Positions 10,897 to 23,843 of a stretch of 64,000 nucleotides of DNA are shown here, piece by piece. The stretch's first letter is position 1. Each line of letters opens with the position of its first letter. The DNA lies in NCBI GenBank assembly GCA_964530795.1, contig CAZHBX010000006.1, positions 512-64,511 of the forward strand, read 5' to 3'. The notes below the pieces were generated by a model. It ran no database searches. It was not told the DNA's origin and saw nothing but the letters and a program-made list of their open reading frames with translations. The translations under genes were made by a program, and so were the position numbers. Origin of the DNA: an uncultured Ruminococcus sp. (GTDB lineage Bacteria > Bacillota > Clostridia > Oscillospirales > CAG-382).

Positions 10897-12255
10897 TCAG
10901 TTTTTCAGCGAATGGATCGGGGCGGGGATCAAGCCGCCGCGGGCGATGAACCGGACCGGGTCGGTTTGGTTGATGCGCATGATTGGTGCGTCACCTAAAA
11001 GACCACCGAAGGACAGGGACTCGCCCTCCTTCTTACCGATGGCGGGGATCACGCGGACGGCCGTCGTCTTGGTATTCGCCACGCCAATGGACAGTTCGTC
11101 AGCAATCAGCGCGGAAATGACCGCGGCGGACGTGTCGCCGGGAATCGCGATCATGTCAAGCCCCACCGAGCAGACCGCCGTCATCGCTTCGAGCTTTTCG
11201 ATGGTCAGACAGCCGCTCTTCGCGGCGTCGATCATGCCCTCGTCCTCAGAAACCGGGATGAACGCCCCAGAAAGCCCGCCGACTCGCGAGGACGCCATGA
11301 CGCCGCCTTTCTTGACCGCGTCGTTGAGCAGCGCGAGCGCCGCTGTCGTCCCACAGCCGCCGCAGCAGCCGACGCCCATCGCTTCTAAAATCCGTGCGAC
11401 TGAATCGCCGACAGCGGGCGTGGGCGCGAGGGACAAGTCGACGATGCCGAAGGGGACGCCGAGCCGCTTGCTCGCTTCCCCCGCGATCAGCTGTCCCATG
11501 CGGGTAATTTTGAAGGCGGTCTTCTTGATGACCTCGAAAAGTTCCTCGAACGGCGCATCCGGGCATTTTTCAATCGCCGCGCACACCACGCCTGGGCCGG
11601 AAACACCAATGTTGATGACGCAATCGCCCTCGCCGACGCCATGGAACGCACCCGCCATGAACGGGTTGTCCTCCGGCGCGTTGGCGAATACGACCAGCTT
11701 CGCCGCACCGATGCATTGCCGGTCCTGCGTCAGCTCCGCTGTCCGACGAATGATATGCCCCATACGGGCGACCACGTCCATATTCAGCCCCGCCTTGGTC
11801 GTCGCCGCGTTGACGGACGCGCAGACCCGCTCGGTGGACGAGAGCGCCTCGGGGATCGTGTCAAGCAGGATGCACTCGGATTCCGTTGCTCCCTTCGGCA
11901 CCAGTGCGGTATACCCGCCGATAAAATGAATTCCAAGCGTATCCGCCGCATGGTCCAGCGCGCGGGCGATCCGCAGAAATCCCTCGGCACTCTGCCCGGC
12001 GCCGACGAGCGAAATCGGCGTAACGGACACCCGCTTGTTGACGATCGGAATGCCGTATTCCCGCTCGAGCTCCTCGCTGACCTGGACGAGGTGTTCGGCC
12101 CGGGTGGTGACGGTATCGTAAATTCGATCCGCAAGACCCGCCGGGTCGCCACCCGCACAGCGCAGAAGGGAAATCCCCATCGTGACGGTGCGGATGTCAA
12201 GGTGCTCGGTTTCGATCATGCGGACGGTTTCAAGGATGTCGTTGGTATTCAGCAT
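10897..12255 (-). CDS. UPF0210 (DUF711, PFL-like fold) family protein
   Basis: The N-terminus [31 protein letters not shown] matches the UPF0210 signature. It is 452 aa and follows its usual ACT-domain partner by 18 nt. Confidence 0.85.
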
Positions 12256-12273
12256 ATGGAAATTCCTTTCCGT

Positions 12274-12543
12274 TCAAATGCGGTGCATGGAGTTGAAAAC
12301 GTCCTCGTGCATGGCGTGGATCTTCAGCCCATTTCGGTCCGCGAGCTTTTCGAGCTCGTCCGCGAATTCGCCGAATGGGGTCTTCAGCCGGTCGAGGTCC
12401 ACAAGCATCATCATCGCGAAATACTCCTGCATGACCGACTGCGAGATGTCAACGATGTTCGCTCCGTACTCGGTGCAGAGCGCGGATACCACCGAGATGA
12501 TGCCCATGCCGTCCTTCCCGGTAACCGTGATAACTGCTTTCAT
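12274..12543 (-). CDS. ACT domain protein, UPF0237 family
   Basis: MKAVITVTGKDGMGIISVVSALCTEYGANIVDISQSVMQEYFAMMMLV is the typical UPF0237 ACT fold. Start moved to ATG 12543 behind a GAAAGGAAAAG RBS. Confidence 0.8.
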   Translation of the reverse strand: MKAVITVTGKDGMGIISVVSALCTEYGANIVDISQSVMQEYFAMMMLVDLDRLKTPFGEFADELEKLADRNGLKIHAMHEDVFNSMHRI

Positions 12544-12593
12544 CTGTCCAAAACTTTTCCTTTCCAATTGTTTCAATACTTTATTATACACAC

Positions 12594-12622
12594 ATTATAC
12601 ACAGTTTCTAGGAGAAAAGCAA
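12594..12622 (-). promoter_or_regulatory. sigma-A-type promoter for the ACT/UPF0210 operon (TTGCTT-17-TATAAT with TGTG extension)
   Basis: The reverse complement reads cTTGCTTttctcctagaaactgtgTATAATg. Confidence 0.6.
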
Positions 12623-12701
12623 GTTTTTTCCGAAAAAAGCAAAGTTTTTGCGCAAGTTTTCCCGCCGCGGGAACGCTTTTTCTGCTTTTTCTAAAAAAAG
12701 A

Positions 12702-12730
12702 TTGACTTTTCCGGAAAAGAATGGTATACT
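12702..12730 (+). promoter_or_regulatory. sigma-A-type promoter for the GT2 operon (TTGACT-17-TATACT, TGn-extended)
   Basis: Hexamers at 12702-12707 and 12725-12730 read directly. Confidence 0.6.
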
Positions 12731-12802
12731 GATGCATAGAAATTTTTATAAAGATCGTATACTCCATCGTCTAACCATCGTCAATTTCTTTTGGAGGTTC
12801 CT

Positions 12803-14083
12803 ATGCAGACCGCAAGAATGGTAATCACCATTATCGAAATTGTTCTGACCGTCTTCTTCGCCCTGCTGTTTGTCTATCAATTTTTTTATACGTTCTACGT
12901 TCTCTTCTCCCACGGGGAGGAAAAGCCACTGCTCCGAAACAAGCAAAACCGCTTCGGGGTGATCATTCCCGCCCGCAACGAGCAGCAGGTCATCGGACAA
13001 CTCATCGACAGCATCCGCAAGCAGACCTACCCGGCCGATCTGATCCGCATCTTCGTCATTGCGGACAATTGCACGGACGACACGGCGGAAATCGGGCGGC
13101 AGAAGGGCGCCTATGTGCTCGAACGACAGGATCAGGAGCTCATCGGCAAAGGATATGCGCTCGACTACTTTTTCAAGCATCTGCGCGAGCACGGCGACGA
13201 CTGCGACGCGTACCTCGTCTTCGACGCGGACAACCTCCTCGACGAGCACTTCATTGAGGAAATGAACAATGGGCTCAACCGCGGATACCAGGCGCTGACC
13301 TCCTATCGCAACTCCAAAAACTACGGCACAAACTGGATCTCCGCCGGGTATTCCCTCTGGTTTTTGCGCGAGGCGAAGTACCTGAACAACGCCCGTATGC
13401 AGCTCAACACCAGCTGTGCCATTTCCGGGACCGGCTTCTGCGTCAGCCGGGAACTGATTGAAAAGAACGGCGGCTGGCCGTTCCACCTTCTGACGGAAGA
13501 TATGGAATTCACGATCGACACCATCGTCAACGGCGGAAAAATCGGATACTGCGGCAAAGCGATACTCTATGACGAGCAGCCGGTTAAGTTCTCGCAGTCG
13601 TGGAACCAGCGCCTGCGCTGGGCAAAGGGATTCTATCAGGTCTTTGGACAATACGCCGGGAAGCTGTTCAAAGGAATCCTTCATGGGAGCTTCGCCTGTT
13701 ACGACATGTTGGTGACCATCCTGCCCGGCATCCTCGGATTTGGCGTTACCGCCGTCTGTTCAATCGCCGACCTCATCTTCTGGGCGCTCTATCCGGAAAG
13801 CAACAGTTTGCAAAGGGCGATCACCATTTTAATTATATTTTTGGTGTTTTATTATCTTTTGATGTTCTTTATGGGGCTTTTAACTGTTCTGACCGAAGGG
13901 GAGAACATCAGCGGGTGCTCCCGCAAGAGGAAGATCTGGTCGATCTTCACGTTCCCAGTCTACATGGCGACGTACCTGCCGATCGCGGTGATCGCACTGT
14001 TCAAGAAAGTTGACTGGAAGCCGATCCAACATACGGTGGCGAAGTCCATTGACGACCTGAACAAGAAGAGCAAGAGGCAGTAA
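12803..14083 (+). CDS. membrane-embedded family-2 glycosyltransferase with a processive beta-glycan synthase signature
   Basis: GGAGG RBS before ATG 12803. One N-terminal TM helix, then IIPARNE, DNCTDD, FDADN, TED (HLLTEDMEF) and QRLRW motifs, then several C-terminal TM helices. Confidence 0.85.
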   Translation: MQTARMVITIIEIVLTVFFALLFVYQFFYTFYVLFSHGEEKPLLRNKQNRFGVIIPARNEQQVIGQLIDSIRKQTYPADLIRIFVIADNCTDDTAEIGRQKGAYVLERQDQELIGKGYALDYFFKHLREHGDDCDAYLVFDADNLLDEHFIEEMNNGLNRGYQALTSYRNSKNYGTNWISAGYSLWFLREAKYLNNARMQLNTSCAISGTGFCVSRELIEKNGGWPFHLLTEDMEFTIDTIVNGGKIGYCGKAILYDEQPVKFSQSWNQRLRWAKGFYQVFGQYAGKLFKGILHGSFACYDMLVTILPGILGFGVTAVCSIADLIFWALYPESNSLQRAITILIIFLVFYYLLMFFMGLLTVLTEGENISGCSRKRKIWSIFTFPVYMATYLPIAVIALFKKVDWKPIQHTVAKSIDDLNKKSKRQ

Positions 14084-14108
14084 ACAGGAGAAACAGAGGC
14101 AAGTTCTC

Positions 14109-15377
14109 ATGACATGCAAACGATTTGGAGCGTTCTGTGTGCTTTTGGCGGTGCTTTGTGCCGGCGTTGCAGCGGTCGTCCCGGCGAACGCGGAAACCGG
14201 CTGGACCGCTGCGATGAAAATTGAGCGGACCGCGGAGGATACGAACGCGGGAACGGTGACGGTACGGGTTTCCGTTGAACAGATCACCTGCCAGAGCGGG
14301 ATTTTCTGCGCAGAATATAAAATATACTATGACCCATCCATTTTAAAATTGATTTCCTGGGAAAACTCCAAACCTGCTGGTTGGAACTTCGACGACGAAA
14401 CGGCAGAGGACTGGACGGAGGTCAAGGAAGACCCGGAGCCCTATCTTTCCTATATTATCATGAACACGGGAACGGCGGGAGGCGTCAAACGAAACGGGGA
14501 GCTCTACACCGACATGACCTTTCAGGTGCTGTCGGATACGGCGAAGTCTGCGTCCGTCACCGTGCGGAACATCCAGTTTGCCGACGTGTCCAATGAATCC
14601 CTGTTAAATCCATGCAAACTGCCGGATCAGACCTGCGAAATCGGCCTGCACGGCAACGCGAGCACGTCAGCCGTTCCGGTGGAGAGCAGCGAACCTGCCG
14701 TTTCGGAAAGTTCTGCGACCGTGAGCGAATCGACGGAGAGCAGCAAACCCTCCGGCGGCCTGTCCTCGCAGGGCGGTACGTCCTCCGGCGTGCAGTCTGT
14801 TCCGGGCGAAACGTCCGTGTATTTGCCGGTGGCAAGCGAGGAAAGCGCGCATCGCATTACGGTCTCCGTTTCAATTGCGGACGTCCGGGATGACGATGGG
14901 GTTTCCGGGTTCTCCCTGCGGCTGAAATACAACAGGAGCTTCCTGCAATACGTCTCCCACACTTGCATCACGCCAGAAAATTGGGCCAACTCGGAGGACC
15001 TTTCGACCGAACCGGAAAGGGGACAAATGACCCTGTCGGTCATCAATCGCGACGCCGGGAACGGAGCAAAGGAGGATGGGGCCCTCGGATTTCTGGTAGA
15101 ATTTACCTATAATGGAACGGATTTTGACCAGAGTATTTTCCAAATTGAGCAAATTCACCTAACCGACGACGAAGCGAACGAGTTGGATTCGGACAGCTGT
15201 CGGGTCATCGTGAGCTATGAGATGGACGGCGTGCCTGTAACGGCGAAAGACCTCCAGCTGCCGAATCAGTCGGAAGGAAGCACTTGGAAAATCGTGCTCG
15301 CTGTTGCCGCTTCGATTGTCGTGCTCGGCGCCGCCGTCACGGGATTCCTGATTTTCAGAAAGAAGAGGTTGGCATGA
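14109..15377 (+). CDS. secreted, C-terminally membrane-anchored protein with two cohesin-like modules
   Basis: Signal peptide FCVLLAVLCAGVAAVVPANA. Modules TVTVRVSVEQI..FCAEYKIYYDPSILKL and ITVSVSIADV..FSLRLKYNRSFLQYV are split by an S/E/P-rich linker. It ends in a TM helix plus RKKRLA. Confidence 0.6.
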   Translation: MTCKRFGAFCVLLAVLCAGVAAVVPANAETGWTAAMKIERTAEDTNAGTVTVRVSVEQITCQSGIFCAEYKIYYDPSILKLISWENSKPAGWNFDDETAEDWTEVKEDPEPYLSYIIMNTGTAGGVKRNGELYTDMTFQVLSDTAKSASVTVRNIQFADVSNESLLNPCKLPDQTCEIGLHGNASTSAVPVESSEPAVSESSATVSESTESSKPSGGLSSQGGTSSGVQSVPGETSVYLPVASEESAHRITVSVSIADVRDDDGVSGFSLRLKYNRSFLQYVSHTCITPENWANSEDLSTEPERGQMTLSVINRDAGNGAKEDGALGFLVEFTYNGTDFDQSIFQIEQIHLTDDEANELDSDSCRVIVSYEMDGVPVTAKDLQLPNQSEGSTWKIVLAVAASIVVLGAAVTGFLIFRKKRLA

Positions 15378-15952
15378 ACCGTCTGCGTGAATTTTGGTCG
15401 GCTTATTCCCGGTATATTATCCATTTCTGGACCAATCAGCTCGTGATGTCCTTTCTCGGCATCAGCGTCGGACTTGCGACGATCGCGCTGAAGATCGACG
15501 TTGTGTCGGCGCTCGGGAGCGCTTTCTGCATCGCCGTGCTCTGCTTTTTACAATACGACAATCTGTTTCAACTCGGGGAAAAGCACCATTTTCGCCCGGC
15601 AGACGCCTATCGACCCGCGAAAACGCTCGGACTGAAGATTTCTCTGCTCGGATCCTGTCCGCTGCTGCTGGTAATTTTGCTTGGACTTTTGGCATCCGCT
15701 TTTGCGTCGGACAATGTGCAGGTGATTTTTATGCTGATTCACATCGCCCTGCACGGCAGTTACCTTTATCCGCTGACCTTCCTTTCGGTAGAAGGGACGG
15801 TTGGCTGGCTGGGCGGTCCGCTCGGGTGGGTGGTCTGCCTGTTGTTCCTGCTGCCGGAGATTCTGTTCGCCGGGCTTGGTTATTTGCTCGGTTCGAAGGA
15901 CCGCCCGCTGCGCACATTCGTCGGCATCCGCTACGGCAAGAAGGAAAAGTGA
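15374..15952 (+). CDS. hypothetical polytopic membrane protein (192 aa)
   Basis: Its ATG overlaps the stop of the preceding gene (ATGA at 15374-15377). About 5-6 hydrophobic helices. I recognise no family motif. Confidence 0.6.
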   Translation: MNRLREFWSAYSRYIIHFWTNQLVMSFLGISVGLATIALKIDVVSALGSAFCIAVLCFLQYDNLFQLGEKHHFRPADAYRPAKTLGLKISLLGSCPLLLVILLGLLASAFASDNVQVIFMLIHIALHGSYLYPLTFLSVEGTVGWLGGPLGWVVCLLFLLPEILFAGLGYLLGSKDRPLRTFVGIRYGKKEK

Positions 15953-15964
15953 CCGGCAGGGGAG

Positions 15965-15993
15965 TCATATCACAAGACAACCCCTCATACCTT
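15965..15993 (+). promoter_or_regulatory. sigma-E-like sporulation promoter upstream of cwlD (TCATAT-15-CATACCTT)
   Basis: Compared by eye with the sigma-E consensus (ATA-containing -35, CATACA.T -10). B. subtilis cwlD is sigma-E/sigma-G dependent. Confidence 0.35.
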
Positions 15994-16035
15994 GTAACAA
16001 AATAACAAAATGCAAGGTGTAAAGGATGTGTGTAT

Positions 16036-16803
16036 ATGGAAACTCCTTCGTCCTCTGAGTTTCGGGAGCCGCGGATTTTTCTGGTACTGCTCGGCGTCGT
16101 GTTGGCCGTCGTGCTGGTGTTCTATTTCGTGACGTCCATGGTGACGTCGGTCGGATACCATGCCTTCGCGGAGGCGGACGCAAGTCCGGCAGGGGAATCA
16201 TGCTTTACGATCATCCTCGATGCAGGACACGGCGGGGAAGACCCCGGTGCGGTCGCAAACGGGCTAAATGAGAAAGATCTGAACCTTCAGATTACCCTGA
16301 AAACGGCGGATTTCCTGCGGCTTTCCGGTTGCAACGTCGTTCTGACGCGCTCGGAGGACCGCTTGTTGTACAACAGCGGCGAGGAGAATCGGAAAAAGTA
16401 TTACGATCTGTACAACCGTCTGCAGTTCGCAGAGAAATACTCGGACGCGATTTTCGTCAGCATCCATATGAACAAATTCCCGATGGAGAACTGTCAGGGC
16501 TTGCAGACCTTTTATTCCATGAACGACCCGCGCAGCGCGCTGCTCGCGGAAGCGCTTCAGGCGTCGTCGACGCTCGTCATGCCTGATAACCGGCGGACCA
16601 TTAAGCCGGATAACCGAACCATCTTTTTGCTCAAGAATCTGCAAATGCCCGCCGTCATCGTCGAATGCGGTTTCCTTTCAAACGCGACTGACGCGGAAAA
16701 TCTCGCGAACGAAACCTATCAGGACAAACTCGCGCTTGCCCTCGCGTCCGGAATCGGGCGTTACTGTGAAACGGTGAAGGAAAACGACTCCGTATCCCAA
16801 TGA
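16036..16803 (+). CDS. cwlD: N-acetylmuramoyl-L-alanine amidase, CwlD-like (spore cortex muramic-lactam formation)
   Basis: N-terminal TM helix, then amidase_3 motifs ILDAGHGGEDPGA and FVSIHMN..QTFY and ECGFLSN. Size and architecture match CwlD. Confidence 0.8.
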   Translation: METPSSSEFREPRIFLVLLGVVLAVVLVFYFVTSMVTSVGYHAFAEADASPAGESCFTIILDAGHGGEDPGAVANGLNEKDLNLQITLKTADFLRLSGCNVVLTRSEDRLLYNSGEENRKKYYDLYNRLQFAEKYSDAIFVSIHMNKFPMENCQGLQTFYSMNDPRSALLAEALQASSTLVMPDNRRTIKPDNRTIFLLKNLQMPAVIVECGFLSNATDAENLANETYQDKLALALASGIGRYCETVKENDSVSQ

Positions 16804-16821
16804 AGCGGGAGGAAAAAGACG

Positions 16822-18216
16822 TTGAAAACCAGCTATATTTGCGAAAACTGCGGAAATGTGACCGCAAAATGGTTCGGAAAATGTCCGTCCTGCGGCGCGT
16901 GGAACACAATGACGGAGCAGGAAACCGTCCCGGAACCGGCGCCGCCGACGAAGGCGCGCCGCGCCCCGCTCCACAATACCCAGACGGTCGAGCATTCCAA
17001 GGCGCTTCGCATTGATGAAATTCTTTTCCAAAACGACATTCGCTTTTTGACCGGGCTCGGCGAATTCGACCGAGTCCTCGGAGGCGGACTGGTCGAAGGA
17101 TCGGTTGTGCTGATTTCCGGCGAACCGGGCATTGGAAAATCCACTTTACTACTCCAAATTTGTCAATTCGTGGGGAAAAACGCGAGACTTTTATATGTCA
17201 CCGGCGAGGAATCCATTTCGCAGATCAAACTGCGGGCGACCCGCATCGGTGTCGATACGGCGAACCTGCTCGTCCTGAGCGAGACTTCGGTCAACAAGAT
17301 CATTCCGGAAATCAACACGGTACAACCGGATGTGGTAATTATTGACTCTATTCAGACCATGTATGACGAGAACTTTCCGTCCTCGCCCGGTACGATCACG
17401 CAGGTCAAGCAAGCGACCATGCAGTTGATTGCCAAGGCGAAAGAGGACCGGATATCCATCCTGATCGTCGGACACGTCAATAAAGACGGAGCGATTGCCG
17501 GGCCAAAGGTACTCGAACATATGGTCGACGCGGTGCTCTATTTCGAAGGGGACAAGCAGCACGCTTACCGCATCATCCGCGCGGTCAAAAACCGCTACGG
17601 CTCAACCAACGAGATCGGAATGTTCGAGATGTCGGACAACGGGCTGACGGAGATTGAAAAGCCATCCGAGCACATCCTCCAGCAGCGCCCGAAGGACGTT
17701 CCCGGAAGCTGTGCGGCGGCGGTCATGGAGGGCAGCCGTCCGATGATCACCGAGATACAGGCGCTTTCCTCCAATACAACGTTTCCATCGCCTCGCAGAA
17801 TGTCTTCAGGTTTTGATTATAACCGGCTTGCTTTGCTGCTCGCGGTTCTTGAAAAACGCCTTGGGCTGCGCTTTTCAACGCAGGATGTATACCTAAACAT
17901 TGCCGGCGGACTGCGCATTGACGAACCTGCGTGTGACGCCGCCGCCGCGATGGCGCTGCTTTCGAGTTATAAGGAAATCCCGGTACCGGAGGACCTGATC
18001 GTCATGGGCGAAATCGGGCTGGCCGGCGAATGCCGTTCCATCAACGTATTGGACCAACGGCTGAGCAACGCCGCACGGCTTGGGTTCAAACGCGCAGCGA
18101 TCCCACACCACAACGCGGAGCGGATGAAAAACGCATACGGAATGGGGATCGTTCGTTTGCAGAGCATTTTTGATTTGCTGCGTCTGTTGAACGCGCCAAA
18201 AAAGGAAGAAGAATAA
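16822..18216 (+). CDS. radA: DNA repair protein RadA
   Basis: Zinc ribbon CENCG..CPSCGAWNT, Walker A GEPGIGKST, KNRYG motif and Lon-like C-terminus. TTG start lies 8 nt after GGAGG. Confidence 0.95.
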   Translation: MKTSYICENCGNVTAKWFGKCPSCGAWNTMTEQETVPEPAPPTKARRAPLHNTQTVEHSKALRIDEILFQNDIRFLTGLGEFDRVLGGGLVEGSVVLISGEPGIGKSTLLLQICQFVGKNARLLYVTGEESISQIKLRATRIGVDTANLLVLSETSVNKIIPEINTVQPDVVIIDSIQTMYDENFPSSPGTITQVKQATMQLIAKAKEDRISILIVGHVNKDGAIAGPKVLEHMVDAVLYFEGDKQHAYRIIRAVKNRYGSTNEIGMFEMSDNGLTEIEKPSEHILQQRPKDVPGSCAAAVMEGSRPMITEIQALSSNTTFPSPRRMSSGFDYNRLALLLAVLEKRLGLRFSTQDVYLNIAGGLRIDEPACDAAAAMALLSSYKEIPVPEDLIVMGEIGLAGECRSINVLDQRLSNAARLGFKRAAIPHHNAERMKNAYGMGIVRLQSIFDLLRLLNAPKKEEE

Positions 18217-21938: not shown

Positions 21939-22934
21939 TTATCCACGGTCCGTAAAGACCGGCTCGATCTCCTCTTCCTGCGGACGTTCTTCCGGGTGAT
22001 CCCGGTAGTACGGCTCAATCATATAGGTTTCGATAACCGGATAGGCCGCGTAGACGCCGATATATTGCAAGATCCCGAACGTAAAAACGATCGGCAGGAA
22101 GGTTCCGAAGACCGGGAACATCACGTACAGATACAGATTTATAAAAATGGTCAAAGCGGACCCAAGCAGGCACATCAGGTTCCGCTTCCAGCCGAGGAAA
22201 ACGAGGAACAGCGAATTTTTGAGTAGTTTTGTGAACTTGAGATCAAACGTGACGAGAATGAGGTAGATATAGCTCCGCATGACGAAATAGACGAGCGCGG
22301 AGAACAGCACGACGTAGAACGCCATCTGCATGAAGAAACTATTGGCGTTGGCGTAGTAAGCGATCAAATCGTAGCCGAGAAACAGGATCATCAGCGCGTC
22401 GAGGATTGCGATCGGAAGTCCCTGCCGCAGGTTCCTTCGGATCGCCGAAAAGAACTCGCTCCACGGGGAAAGCGGCTCGCAACGCACGATACTCCGCATG
22501 TTGTACACCGCGCCGAGCGTGGAAAGCCCGAAGGTCAATATCAGCAGGAAGGCGCAATACATCAGCACCCTTGAGGCGGTCGAAACGATCTGCACGGTCG
22601 TGCCAATGCCGAAAAGCCCGTACAGCATGGAGAGCATCGGGTCCCGTTCCCCTGCCAGCTCCATCCCGTAAAGCGTCGCATAAAGCGGCGACATCGGCGC
22701 GGGGACGCTGCTGTCGAGGTTGCCGGAAAGTCCGAACAGGAACAGCAGGATCGGAAAATTGCAAAGCGAAAAGACGATGCTGGTAGAGGAAATATCGCCC
22801 AGCCGATTCTTAAAGAGCCGGAAAAAGAATCCGAGCCCCATTTTCTTGTCCCGCTCGACCTGCTGCTTCGTCACGCCCTTGCCGCTGCGATTGTTTGTCC
22901 CGGAAAAAAAGTTGTAAATTCTGCCTTTGCCCAT
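21939..22934 (-). CDS. hypothetical polytopic membrane protein (possibly YesL/DUF624-like)
   Basis: About 6-7 hydrophobic helices and an acidic C-terminal tail. It starts 3 nt after the xerD stop. The family assignment is a weak impression only. Confidence 0.5.
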   Translation of the reverse strand: MGKGRIYNFFSGTNNRSGKGVTKQQVERDKKMGLGFFFRLFKNRLGDISSTSIVFSLCNFPILLFLFGLSGNLDSSVPAPMSPLYATLYGMELAGERDPMLSMLYGLFGIGTTVQIVSTASRVLMYCAFLLILTFGLSTLGAVYNMRSIVRCEPLSPWSEFFSAIRRNLRQGLPIAILDALMILFLGYDLIAYYANANSFFMQMAFYVVLFSALVYFVMRSYIYLILVTFDLKFTKLLKNSLFLVFLGWKRNLMCLLGSALTIFINLYLYVMFPVFGTFLPIVFTFGILQYIGVYAAYPVIETYMIEPYYRDHPEERPQEEEIEPVFTDRG

Positions 22935-22937
22935 CGG

Positions 22938-23843
22938 TTATGCCCTCGGATGAAACTTCATATAGCTTTTCTGCATCTTGCCTTTGAGGTATTGCGTATA
23001 TTTCTGCGTGGAAGCGAGGTCGCGGTGGCCGAGGATCTCCTGGATTTCGTGGATATCCGCCCCGTTTTCAAGCAGGTGCGCCGCAAAGGAATGACGGAGC
23101 GTGTGCGGAGTAATGTCCTTTTGAATGTTCGCCGCCCGCACGTAGCCTTTGAGAATCTTCCAAAAGCCCTGCCGGGTCATTCGCTCGCCGGAAATGTTGA
23201 CAAACAGCGCTTCTTCGCTCTGCCCCGCCGTCAGGATCGGACGGGAGCGACGAAGGTAGACCTCCAGCGCGTGGAGCGCAACCGGATAGAGCGGGATGAG
23301 CCGCTCGTTTTCGTTTCCGCCGCAGCGCACACAGGAAAGAACGAGGTTGACATCGGTCAGGTTCAGGCCGACCAACTCGGAAACCTTAATCCCGGTCGCG
23401 TACAGCAATTCGAGCATCGCCTTGTCCCGCATTCCCTTCACGTCGCTGATGTCCGGTTGAGACAGCAGGGTCTCCACCTCGGCGGAGGTCAAGACGCTCA
23501 GCTCCTTCTTCGTCGCCTTGTCGTTGTGGACGCTGCGGGCAGGGTTGCTTTGCATCTGTCCAACGGCGACAAGGTACTGGAACATCCCGCGCAGCGCGGA
23601 CAGCGAACGGCTGACGGATGACGCGGAAAGTCCAGTCGACGCGAGGTACTGCTTATACTGCTCGACGTCCTCCGGCGTCAAGTCGGCGAAGCTGTCCACC
23701 CCATGAACGTCCGCGAAATCGAAGAACTTTTCGAGGTCACGACGGTACGCCTGTACTGTGTTGTCGGGGGAATGCCTGACGCCAGACAGGTATTCCAGAT
23801 AATGATGCAATTGTAGGGTCAATTGTCCGGAATCGTTCAGCAT
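22938..23843 (-). CDS. xerD: site-specific tyrosine recombinase XerD (chromosome dimer resolution)
   Basis: N-terminal SAM-like domain (YLEYLSGVRHSPDNTVQAYRRDL). Catalytic region has R..HTLRHSFAAHLLENGADIHEIQEILGHRDLASTQKYT with the terminal Tyr. Confidence 0.85.
   Translation of the reverse strand: MLNDSGQLTLQLHHYLEYLSGVRHSPDNTVQAYRRDLEKFFDFADVHGVDSFADLTPEDVEQYKQYLASTGLSASSVSRSLSALRGMFQYLVAVGQMQSNPARSVHNDKATKKELSVLTSAEVETLLSQPDISDVKGMRDKAMLELLYATGIKVSELVGLNLTDVNLVLSCVRCGGNENERLIPLYPVALHALEVYLRRSRPILTAGQSEEALFVNISGERMTRQGFWKILKGYVRAANIQKDITPHTLRHSFAAHLLENGADIHEIQEILGHRDLASTQKYTQYLKGKMQKSYMKFHPRA

Follow-up and report, generated by a model that had tools for sequence, protein, structure and literature searches.

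We analysed a 64,000-nucleotide stretch (here referred to as the window) of an uncultured Ruminococcus sp. (contig CAZHBX010000006.1) and focused on three co-directional genes on its forward strand (12803-14083, 14109-15377 and 15374-15952). They encode a family 2 glycosyltransferase (GT2), a cohesin-bearing surface protein (gene 2) and a polytopic membrane protein (gene 3). In our assessment, which leans modestly to this side, the block is composite: a stand-alone GT2 of synthase fold lies beside a two-part membrane module made of the cohesin protein and gene 3, and the two became neighbours in one Oscillospiraceae-like lineage. A first-pass annotation had taken the trio for a dedicated synthase system with the cohesin protein as polymer handler. 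Its observation is correct and its interpretation over-reaching, for the GT2 gene stands alone elsewhere and the cohesin/gene-3 pair is found without GT2. The features concerned are as follows.

12702-12730, forward strand: promoter of the GT2 gene (consensus scan and conservation in 11 lineage loci)
12803-14083, forward strand: GT2 glycosyltransferase of 426 amino acids (Pfam, NCBIfam, AlphaFold2 and Foldseek)
14109-15377, forward strand: cohesin surface protein of 422 amino acids (PF00963, AlphaFold2, Foldseek and family alignment)
15374-15952, forward strand: gene 3, polytopic membrane protein of 192 amino acids (hydropathy; no family model)

The order GT2, cohesin gene, gene 3, amidase gene and radA is kept across L001-L012, the loci that make up the window lineage. 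The flanks are also syntenic there, with the ACT/DUF711 genes upstream and the amidase, radA and ABC genes downstream. Among the loci compared, the trio was found in this lineage only and was not syntenic in other relatives. Because the flanking housekeeping genes have been kept too, by common descent, the synteny within the lineage is uninformative on function. This bears on the rival view of one exopolysaccharide system, in which GT2 polymerises and translocates the product, the cohesin protein acts as a BcsB-like guide and gene 3 is a PgaD/IcaD-like part of the channel. Its supporting points are the retention of the trio in 12 of 12 lineage loci, even with different upstream genes, and the tight packing of the genes behind one conserved promoter. 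However, these loci are not independent, as the whole neighbourhood is syntenic, and for this and the reasons that follow we consider such a system decidedly unlikely.

Outside the lineage, GT2 orthologues with 54-60% identity are monocistronic in three other Clostridia contexts (L013-L020): near the ACT/DUF711 genes in L013-15, by a MurJ-type gene in L016-18 and after the aconitase and isocitrate dehydrogenase genes in L019-20. No cohesin, gene-3, amidase or radA gene is present within 6 kb of GT2 in L013-L020. The length, transmembrane segments and motifs of GT2 are unchanged between the linked and the stand-alone forms. Within the lineage the GT2 proteins are 70-92% identical, compared with 43-72% for the cohesin protein and 45-88% for gene 3. 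From the stand-alone orthologues, the unchanged architecture and the slower divergence than that of genes 2 and 3, we infer that GT2 is independent of its two neighbours. Orthologues that lack partners and keep the same architecture also speak against the exopolysaccharide system. As the first unit of the composite block, GT2 would be a widespread, slowly evolving and normally monocistronic enzyme with its own sigma-70 promoter and a possible operator. It would build a beta-linked glycan from a UDP-sugar at the membrane face, or glycosylate a membrane acceptor, in both cases without a partner.

The census of gene-3 homologues outside the lineage covered 21 distinct loci, each with at least 300 bp of downstream sequence. 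A GT2 gene lies near the homologue in none of the 21, again contrary to one exopolysaccharide system, and a cohesin gene lies beside it in two of them (L053 and L054). In L054, where no GT2 is present, the gene for a single-cohesin protein of 254 aa (PF00963, 42.6 bits) and that of the gene-3 homologue share 4 bp; the upstream gene encodes a Metallophos surface protein. In L053 (37% GC), a single open reading frame (ORF) comprises a signal peptide, a cohesin, an N/S-rich linker, a transmembrane anchor and the gene-3 domain, and the upstream gene encodes a DUF1576 protein, not a GT2. Thus the cohesin/gene-3 pair adjoins non-GT2 genes in both loci, which counts further against the exopolysaccharide system. 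Both blastp (1e-7 to 1e-22) and a local hidden Markov model (HMM) show the cohesins of L053 and L054 to be homologues of the modules in the window. The topology of the fusion is also consistent, as the anchor leads into the cytoplasm, the side on which gene 3 begins with a basic N-terminus.

In the window itself, the ATG of gene 3 (15374) overlaps the stop codon of gene 2 as ATGA (4 bp). Since a 4-bp overlap is present in two lineages and a fused ORF in a third, and since the fusion topology fits and the transmembrane anchor, unlike the linker, is conserved, we infer that the products of genes 2 and 3 pair physically. The second unit would have its cohesin ectodomain held at the outer membrane face by the conserved transmembrane helix, and this helix would pack against the polytopic gene-3 protein. 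As far as our searches show, no description exists of a membrane-anchored cohesin that is joined, by coupling or fusion, to an uncharacterised polytopic protein. No 'cohesin domain' was mentioned among the top-ranked papers when the literature was searched for cohesins together with synthase-dependent exopolysaccharides. As a side observation, the upstream surface protein of L054 (L054:1803-5240) has 1145 aa with Metallophos, Big_13/PKD-like and Flg_new repeats and its own C-terminal transmembrane anchor. Its gene ends exactly at the start of the single-cohesin gene, which points to a surface module of three genes there.

Gene 2 carries two cohesin modules with the cohesin-type jelly-roll beta-sandwich fold. 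Its signal peptide (14109-14192, ending ANA-E) is followed by cohesin 1 (14205-14645), cohesin 2 (14850-15239), a transmembrane anchor at about 15291-15347 and an RKKRLA tail. The protein matches PF00963 (Cohesin) with 44.6 bits in two stretches (cut-off 24.1), and its orthologues score 37.8-57 bits. In the AlphaFold2 (AF2) model, beta-sandwiches at residues 33-179 and 248-377 are separated by a disordered S/E/P-rich linker (193-245), and a C-terminal transmembrane helix follows; the predicted local distance difference test score (pLDDT) of the modules is mostly 77-94. The best single-domain Foldseek matches are the cohesins 5nrm_A, 2jh2, 2vo8 and 2ccl_A, with TM-scores of 0.64-0.71 on the target and sequence identities of 8-20%. 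The Foldseek cohesins comprise dockerin-binding types I to III and the C. perfringens type. The earlier description of gene 2 (signal peptide, two cohesin-like modules, S/E/P linker and membrane anchor) is borne out by these results, and both the HMM and the structure comparison returned a cohesin fold and not an unrelated domain.

In the family alignment, module 1 and the transmembrane anchor are conserved and the linker is variable, and the two modules of the window protein are paralogous (blastp 2e-5). Only 13 clusters make up the cohesin protein family, and they come from uncultured rabbit-gut Clostridia and one Oscillospiraceae metagenome-assembled genome (MAG). In the composite reading, the cohesin gene would be an accessory that a few lineages gained upstream of gene 3, with an internal duplication in the window lineage.

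Cohesins are also the parts of scaffoldins. The gene 2 modules could display dockerin-bearing secreted proteins in a cellulosome- or amylosome-like manner, and the proximity of GT2 and gene 3 would then be meaningless. The PF00963 score above the gathering threshold fits this, as do the nearest structures, which are dockerin-binding cohesins, the strong conservation of module 1, as for a specific protein-binding face, and the relatives, which are gut Oscillospiraceae-like MAGs. However, no dockerin-like calcium-binding repeat was seen by a crude regular expression in the six frames of the window and the first 20 loci, which are a small part of the genomes. Moreover, the large upstream surface protein of L054 is without dockerin and has a membrane anchor of its own, and gene 2 is anchored by a conserved transmembrane helix, with neither SLH domains nor sortase involved. 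A free-standing scaffoldin would also leave unexplained why gene 3 is coupled or fused to the cohesin in three lineages, and we regard this model as very doubtful.

Gene 1 encodes a GT2 that is embedded in the membrane and has the cellulose/hyaluronan-synthase fold (COG1215-type). Between its ATG (12803) and its stop (at 14083) it contains FVIADNCTDDT, LVFDADNLL, HLLTEDMEF and NQRLRWAKG, so the DNCTDD, FDADN, TED and QRLRW previously noticed in this 426-aa protein are all present. In Pfam it scores 84.6 bits with Glyco_tranf_2_3 and 74.3 bits with Glyco_trans_2_3 (GT2 families overall, 53-85 bits). Hydropathy and the AF2 model (pLDDT 87, predicted TM-score (pTM) 0.86) put one hydrophobic segment at the N-terminus and three to four at the C-terminus. 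The top Foldseek match is CvHAS (7sp7; E 9e-16, TM-score on the query 0.65), followed by XlHAS1 and BcsA (range E 1e-15 to 1e-12), and the sequence identity to the structural matches is only 14-17%. DNCTDD, FDADN, LLTEDMEF and QRLRW are invariant in 39 homologues. In total, 7,997 homologues were found at E<=1e-20; the best 120 listed are 53-92% identical, and outside the window lineage the best listed are 53-60% identical at full length. By sequence, BcsA alone covers the half from TED to QxxRW (profile match of 28 bits, residues 209-305). The best NCBIfam match is EpsU, with 127.6 bits far below its cut-off of 700, and the model of the poly-N-acetylglucosamine (PNAG) synthase PgaC_IcaA (TIGR03937) gave 58.9 bits, short of its cut-off of 422.

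The synthase fold and the complete set of catalytic motifs in GT2 are in favour of the exopolysaccharide system. A helper could be needed in addition, because the enzyme has only four to five transmembrane helices, like PgaC and NodC, and the layout of gene 2 (signal peptide, beta-sandwiches and C-terminal membrane anchor) recalls BcsB. Nevertheless, genes 2 and 3 have no BcsB, PgaD, IcaD, PilZ or GGDEF match (Pfam/NCBIfam, E<=1).

Another explanation concerns GT2 only and is compatible with the composite reading: a non-processive or short-product transferase that acts on a lipid or lipid-linked acceptor and so makes a glycolipid, a lipid-linked glycan or an oligosaccharide. This is possible, though we rather doubt it. 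D, DxD, TED, QxxRW and the fold are common to non-exporting enzymes, and PcManGT (6yv7) fits GT2 as well as the synthases do (Foldseek, TM-score 0.72 on the target). The best NCBIfam match, EpsU, is a transferase in the Wzx/Wzy pathway of M. xanthus, and several close homologues also match Glyco_transf_21 (ceramide glucosyltransferase family). In L016-L018 the next gene is of the flippase-like MurJ/Polysacc_synt type, and the high conservation of this single-copy core gene is more in keeping with a housekeeping lipid or glycan of the envelope than with an accessory polymer of biofilms. On the other side, the structures with the best E-values are those of processive hyaluronan and cellulose synthases, and HasA, NodC and the pneumococcal type 3/37 synthases illustrate that a lone GT2 of similar size can be processive. 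Moreover, the C. difficile glycolipid synthases UgtA and UgtB belong to a different family; they were found via GT28/GT4 homologues, and we therefore rejected the identity of GT2 with UgtA or UgtB. Since the fold and motifs are common to PcManGT, which exports no polymer, and to EpsU, processivity cannot be read from the GT2 motifs. Of the processive-synthase signature claimed at first, the motifs have stood, but they do not by themselves reveal a processive enzyme, PcManGT being an equal structural match.

The promoter in front of GT2 is of the sigma-70 type, with TTGACT (12702-12707), a 17-nt spacer, and TGG plus TATACT (12722-12730) with the upstream TG (consensus scan). A bare consensus match is at chance level (3 sites vs 2.4 expected). 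The -35 element, the 17-nt spacing and the extended -10 element are kept in 11 of 11 lineage loci compared (the window, L001, L003-L009, L011 and L012), including those with an upstream Crp-family gene, and this conservation makes the promoter credible. The spacer holds an inverted repeat, CTTTTCCGGAAAAG, at 12706-12719, whose CTTTC-N4-6-GAAAG arms are conserved in all 11 loci and whose centre is variable. As it overlaps the promoter, it could be an operator. A Crp/Fnr-family regulator gene lies directly upstream of GT2 in L009, L011 and L012, and two genes upstream in L013-15, with an acetyltransferase gene between.

A single promoter had been said to drive the three genes. The promoter itself has held up, but the transcription unit need not end with the trio, because a terminator 3' of gene 3 is unsupported in the window (hairpin z -1.1) and the amidase gene and radA follow in the same direction. 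The one-direction run therefore has five genes: GT2, the cohesin gene, gene 3, the amidase gene and radA.

Gene 3 is, just as the first-pass annotation had it, a multi-pass protein of 192 aa coupled to gene 2 through the ATGA overlap, and it has four to five hydrophobic segments. It has no match in Pfam or NCBIfam and no meaningful one in PHROGs, where genes 2 and 3 and two relatives were searched. The family profile gave zero matches to PDB sequences at E<=1, and Pfam searches with ten distant relatives returned noise only. A profile search with gene 3 found 223 representative clusters (50% identity clusters) at E<=1e-3, nearly all of about 190 aa. Q22, G29, Y61, G68, G86 and G173 are invariant across the wide alignment. 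Gene 3 would be the older partner of the module, in an old recombinase-gene 3-amidase-radA neighbourhood across Clostridia. Downstream of gene 3, the window contains the following features.

15965-15993, forward strand: paired motif between gene 3 and the amidase gene (conservation in 8 lineage loci)
16036-16803, forward strand: membrane-anchored N-acetylmuramoyl-L-alanine amidase, CwlD-like (TIGR02883 is the best match, below its cut-off)
16822-18216, forward strand: radA (Pfam of orthologues: Zn_ribbon_LapB, AAA_25, ChlI and Lon_C)

The amidase belongs to Amidase_3 and has its transmembrane segment at residues 14-32. Its best NCBIfam match is TIGR02883 spore_cwlD, with 182.1 bits, below the cut-off of 221.55. 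The gap from gene 3 to the amidase gene is 77-83 bp, depending on the start codon chosen, and that from the amidase gene to radA is 18 bp. In every lineage locus, and in 12 of the 21 loci outside, the gene after gene 3 is an Amidase_3 gene, 25-89 bp away (136-164 bits in the six outside loci scored with Pfam). Where the downstream sequence suffices, radA is next to the amidase gene, except in L047 and L049. In most of these 12 amidase loci a Phage_integrase-type tyrosine-recombinase gene lies divergently upstream of gene 3, and spoIVA is found near the gene 3-amidase-radA string in L055-L058.

The spacer of the window contains TCATATC (15965-15971), 14 nt and CATACCTT (15986-15993), with ATA and CATA invariant in 8 lineage loci. 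We take this pair to resemble the sigma-E consensus of B. subtilis, that is, a sporulation-type promoter. With such a sigma-E-like motif, the cwlD-like amidase gene would have a developmental promoter to itself within the co-directional string.

Amidases of this class are known to have partners. CwlD of C. difficile depends on GerS (PMC8496864), LytH of S. aureus depends on ActH (PMC9245657), and partner-dependent activation is described as widespread in the class (PMC8496864, PMC9245657). On the strength of the gene position and the GerS-CwlD and ActH-LytH precedents, our guess is that the cohesin/gene-3 unit is a cell-envelope module, which possibly positions or regulates the neighbouring membrane amidase. 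A stronger version would make gene 3 an undescribed Clostridia-wide family that works with the adjoining CwlD/LytH-class amidase in a GerS/ActH-like role, with the cohesin recruited or fused to it in a few lineages and GT2 a bystander; in that case the cohesin ectodomain would contact the amidase or the wall. We judge this version unlikely. The GerS study suggests that organisms without GerS possibly encode another CwlD regulator (PMC8496864), and this makes the gene-3 family a candidate worth testing.

Several observations weigh against the composite reading or against its amidase link. First, in the window lineage genes 2 and 3 lack a promoter separate from that of GT2 and start 25-55 bp after it, with which they are probably co-transcribed; as they are promoterless and close behind GT2, a link to GT2 acquired later is conceivable. 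A re-use of the cohesin/gene-3 pair in the window lineage as a BcsB/PgaD-like helper for GT2 is less likely than the amidase-partner version above. GT2 and the gene-3 family, both widespread in Clostridia, could also cooperate while unlinked. Second, the L053 fusion is known from a single MAG contig and may be an artefact, because a one-base assembly error at the ATGA could create it. Third, 9 of the 21 outside loci have no amidase gene after gene 3. In the three of these that were mapped (L021, L024 and L033) the next gene is convergent, and in L021 it encodes a Peptidase_S11 D-Ala-D-Ala carboxypeptidase (Pfam). Gene 3 has no homology to GerS, ActH, SpoIIM or EnvC/NlpD in Pfam or NCBIfam, and since radA sits in the same string, conserved order need not mean shared function. 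Fourth, gene 3 and the amidase gene are parted in distant loci by a very stable hairpin (z -4.6 to -8.5) followed by a U-run. Gene 3 has sigma-A-like promoters there, in contrast to the sporulation-type look of the amidase spacer. The 3' arm of the hairpin is the Shine-Dalgarno sequence of the amidase gene, which is sequestered, and the 5' arm carries CATATA. The hairpin may be a terminator and an element that sequesters the ribosome-binding site, from which transcripts starting in the loop would escape. The hairpins are located as follows.

L036:614-683, spacer hairpin
L039:6583-6641, spacer hairpin
L041:748-803, spacer hairpin
L045:6586-6664, spacer hairpin
L053:2485-2556, spacer hairpin
L055:4635-4710, spacer hairpin

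As for the wider surroundings, aconitase and isocitrate dehydrogenase genes lie upstream of the trio, followed by DUF711 and ACT-domain genes on the opposite strand, and two ABC-transporter genes lie downstream of radA. As the first-pass annotation had also remarked, no deacetylase, glycoside hydrolase, PilZ/GGDEF or Wzx/Wzy genes were found near the trio. An Rfam scan of 12200-16900 gave zero matches at E<=1, for riboswitches of cyclic di-GMP (c-di-GMP) or any other kind.

Beyond radA and the ABC genes, a 331-aa protein without Pfam domain and a 301-aa tyrosine recombinase are encoded on the reverse strand (21939-23843). Because a related recombinase gene divergently adjoins gene 3 in distant Clostridia, the neighbourhood appears to have been rearranged in the window lineage. 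In L035, L039, L040, L041 and L045, two conserved motifs, ATTATACAAAATTTT and GGATAAAATGTAAAC, lie in the spacer from which the recombinase gene and gene 3 diverge, and GGATAAAATGTAAAC is reminiscent of the dif site of Firmicutes in its right arm. No significant copy is present in the window. A dif-like site beside the recombinase gene was considered and dropped, as GATAAAATGTAAAC gave one match with one mismatch in the window, not above chance. In L012, a run of small ORFs with a Zot-like gene (faint match) lies just past radA (L012:10833-14585) and may be an integrated filamentous-phage-like element.

The locus can be compared with four kinds of known systems. First, GT2 resembles the stand-alone synthases HasA, the Chlorella virus and vertebrate hyaluronan synthases (HAS), NodC and Cps3S/Tts: in a single polypeptide of about 420 aa, one transmembrane helix precedes the GT-A domain and three to four follow it, QxxRW lies on an interface helix, there is no dedicated partner gene, and HAS is the best structural match. 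It differs in that the identity is 14-17% and no hasB/hasC-like precursor genes are nearby. With TED as the motif of the catalytic base it agrees with BcsA and PgaC, whereas HAS, chitin synthases and NodC have (G/S)(E/D)DR. A widespread, well-conserved, single-gene Clostridia GT2 without a known product is a clean target for one-gene biochemistry.

Second, BcsA-BcsB, PgaC-PgaD and IcaA-IcaD are approached by the TED-QxxRW half of GT2 (BcsA) and the weak PgaC_IcaA profile match, by the secreted beta-sandwiches and C-terminal membrane helix of gene 2 (BcsB), and by the small, polytopic gene 3 (PgaD/IcaD). However, genes 2 and 3 match no BcsB, PgaD or IcaD model, a PilZ/c-di-GMP module is absent, and the partners are not co-inherited with GT2 outside one lineage. 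Synthase-dependent operons are recognised by accessory genes co-inherited across taxa and by a co-polymerase, a c-di-GMP receptor or a modifying enzyme, and the locus has none of these. With this comparative support lost, the cohesin-synthase combination should not be carried forward as a new exopolysaccharide class.

Third, gene 2 shares with scaffoldins and with the C. perfringens GH84C/GH33 cohesins the PF00963 domain, the nine-strand beta-sandwich, the tandem modules and the low-complexity linker. Unlike them, it is membrane-anchored and coupled or fused to a polytopic protein, and no dockerin was found in the sequence searched.

Fourth, CwlD-GerS, LytH-ActH and, by analogy, SpoIIM-SpoIIP resemble the arrangement in which the gene of a membrane-anchored amidase stands beside that of the membrane protein gene 3, and in some lineages a membrane-tethered extracellular cohesin domain is present as well. 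Gene 3 differs from GerS (a LolA-like lipoprotein), ActH (rhomboid plus TPR) and SpoIIM (PF01944), its link to the amidase is positional, and a terminator-like hairpin parts the two genes in many loci. By position, then, a family that has no Pfam or NCBIfam model stands beside a cwlD-like amidase in 12 of 21 loci outside the lineage and is sometimes coupled or fused to a cohesin.

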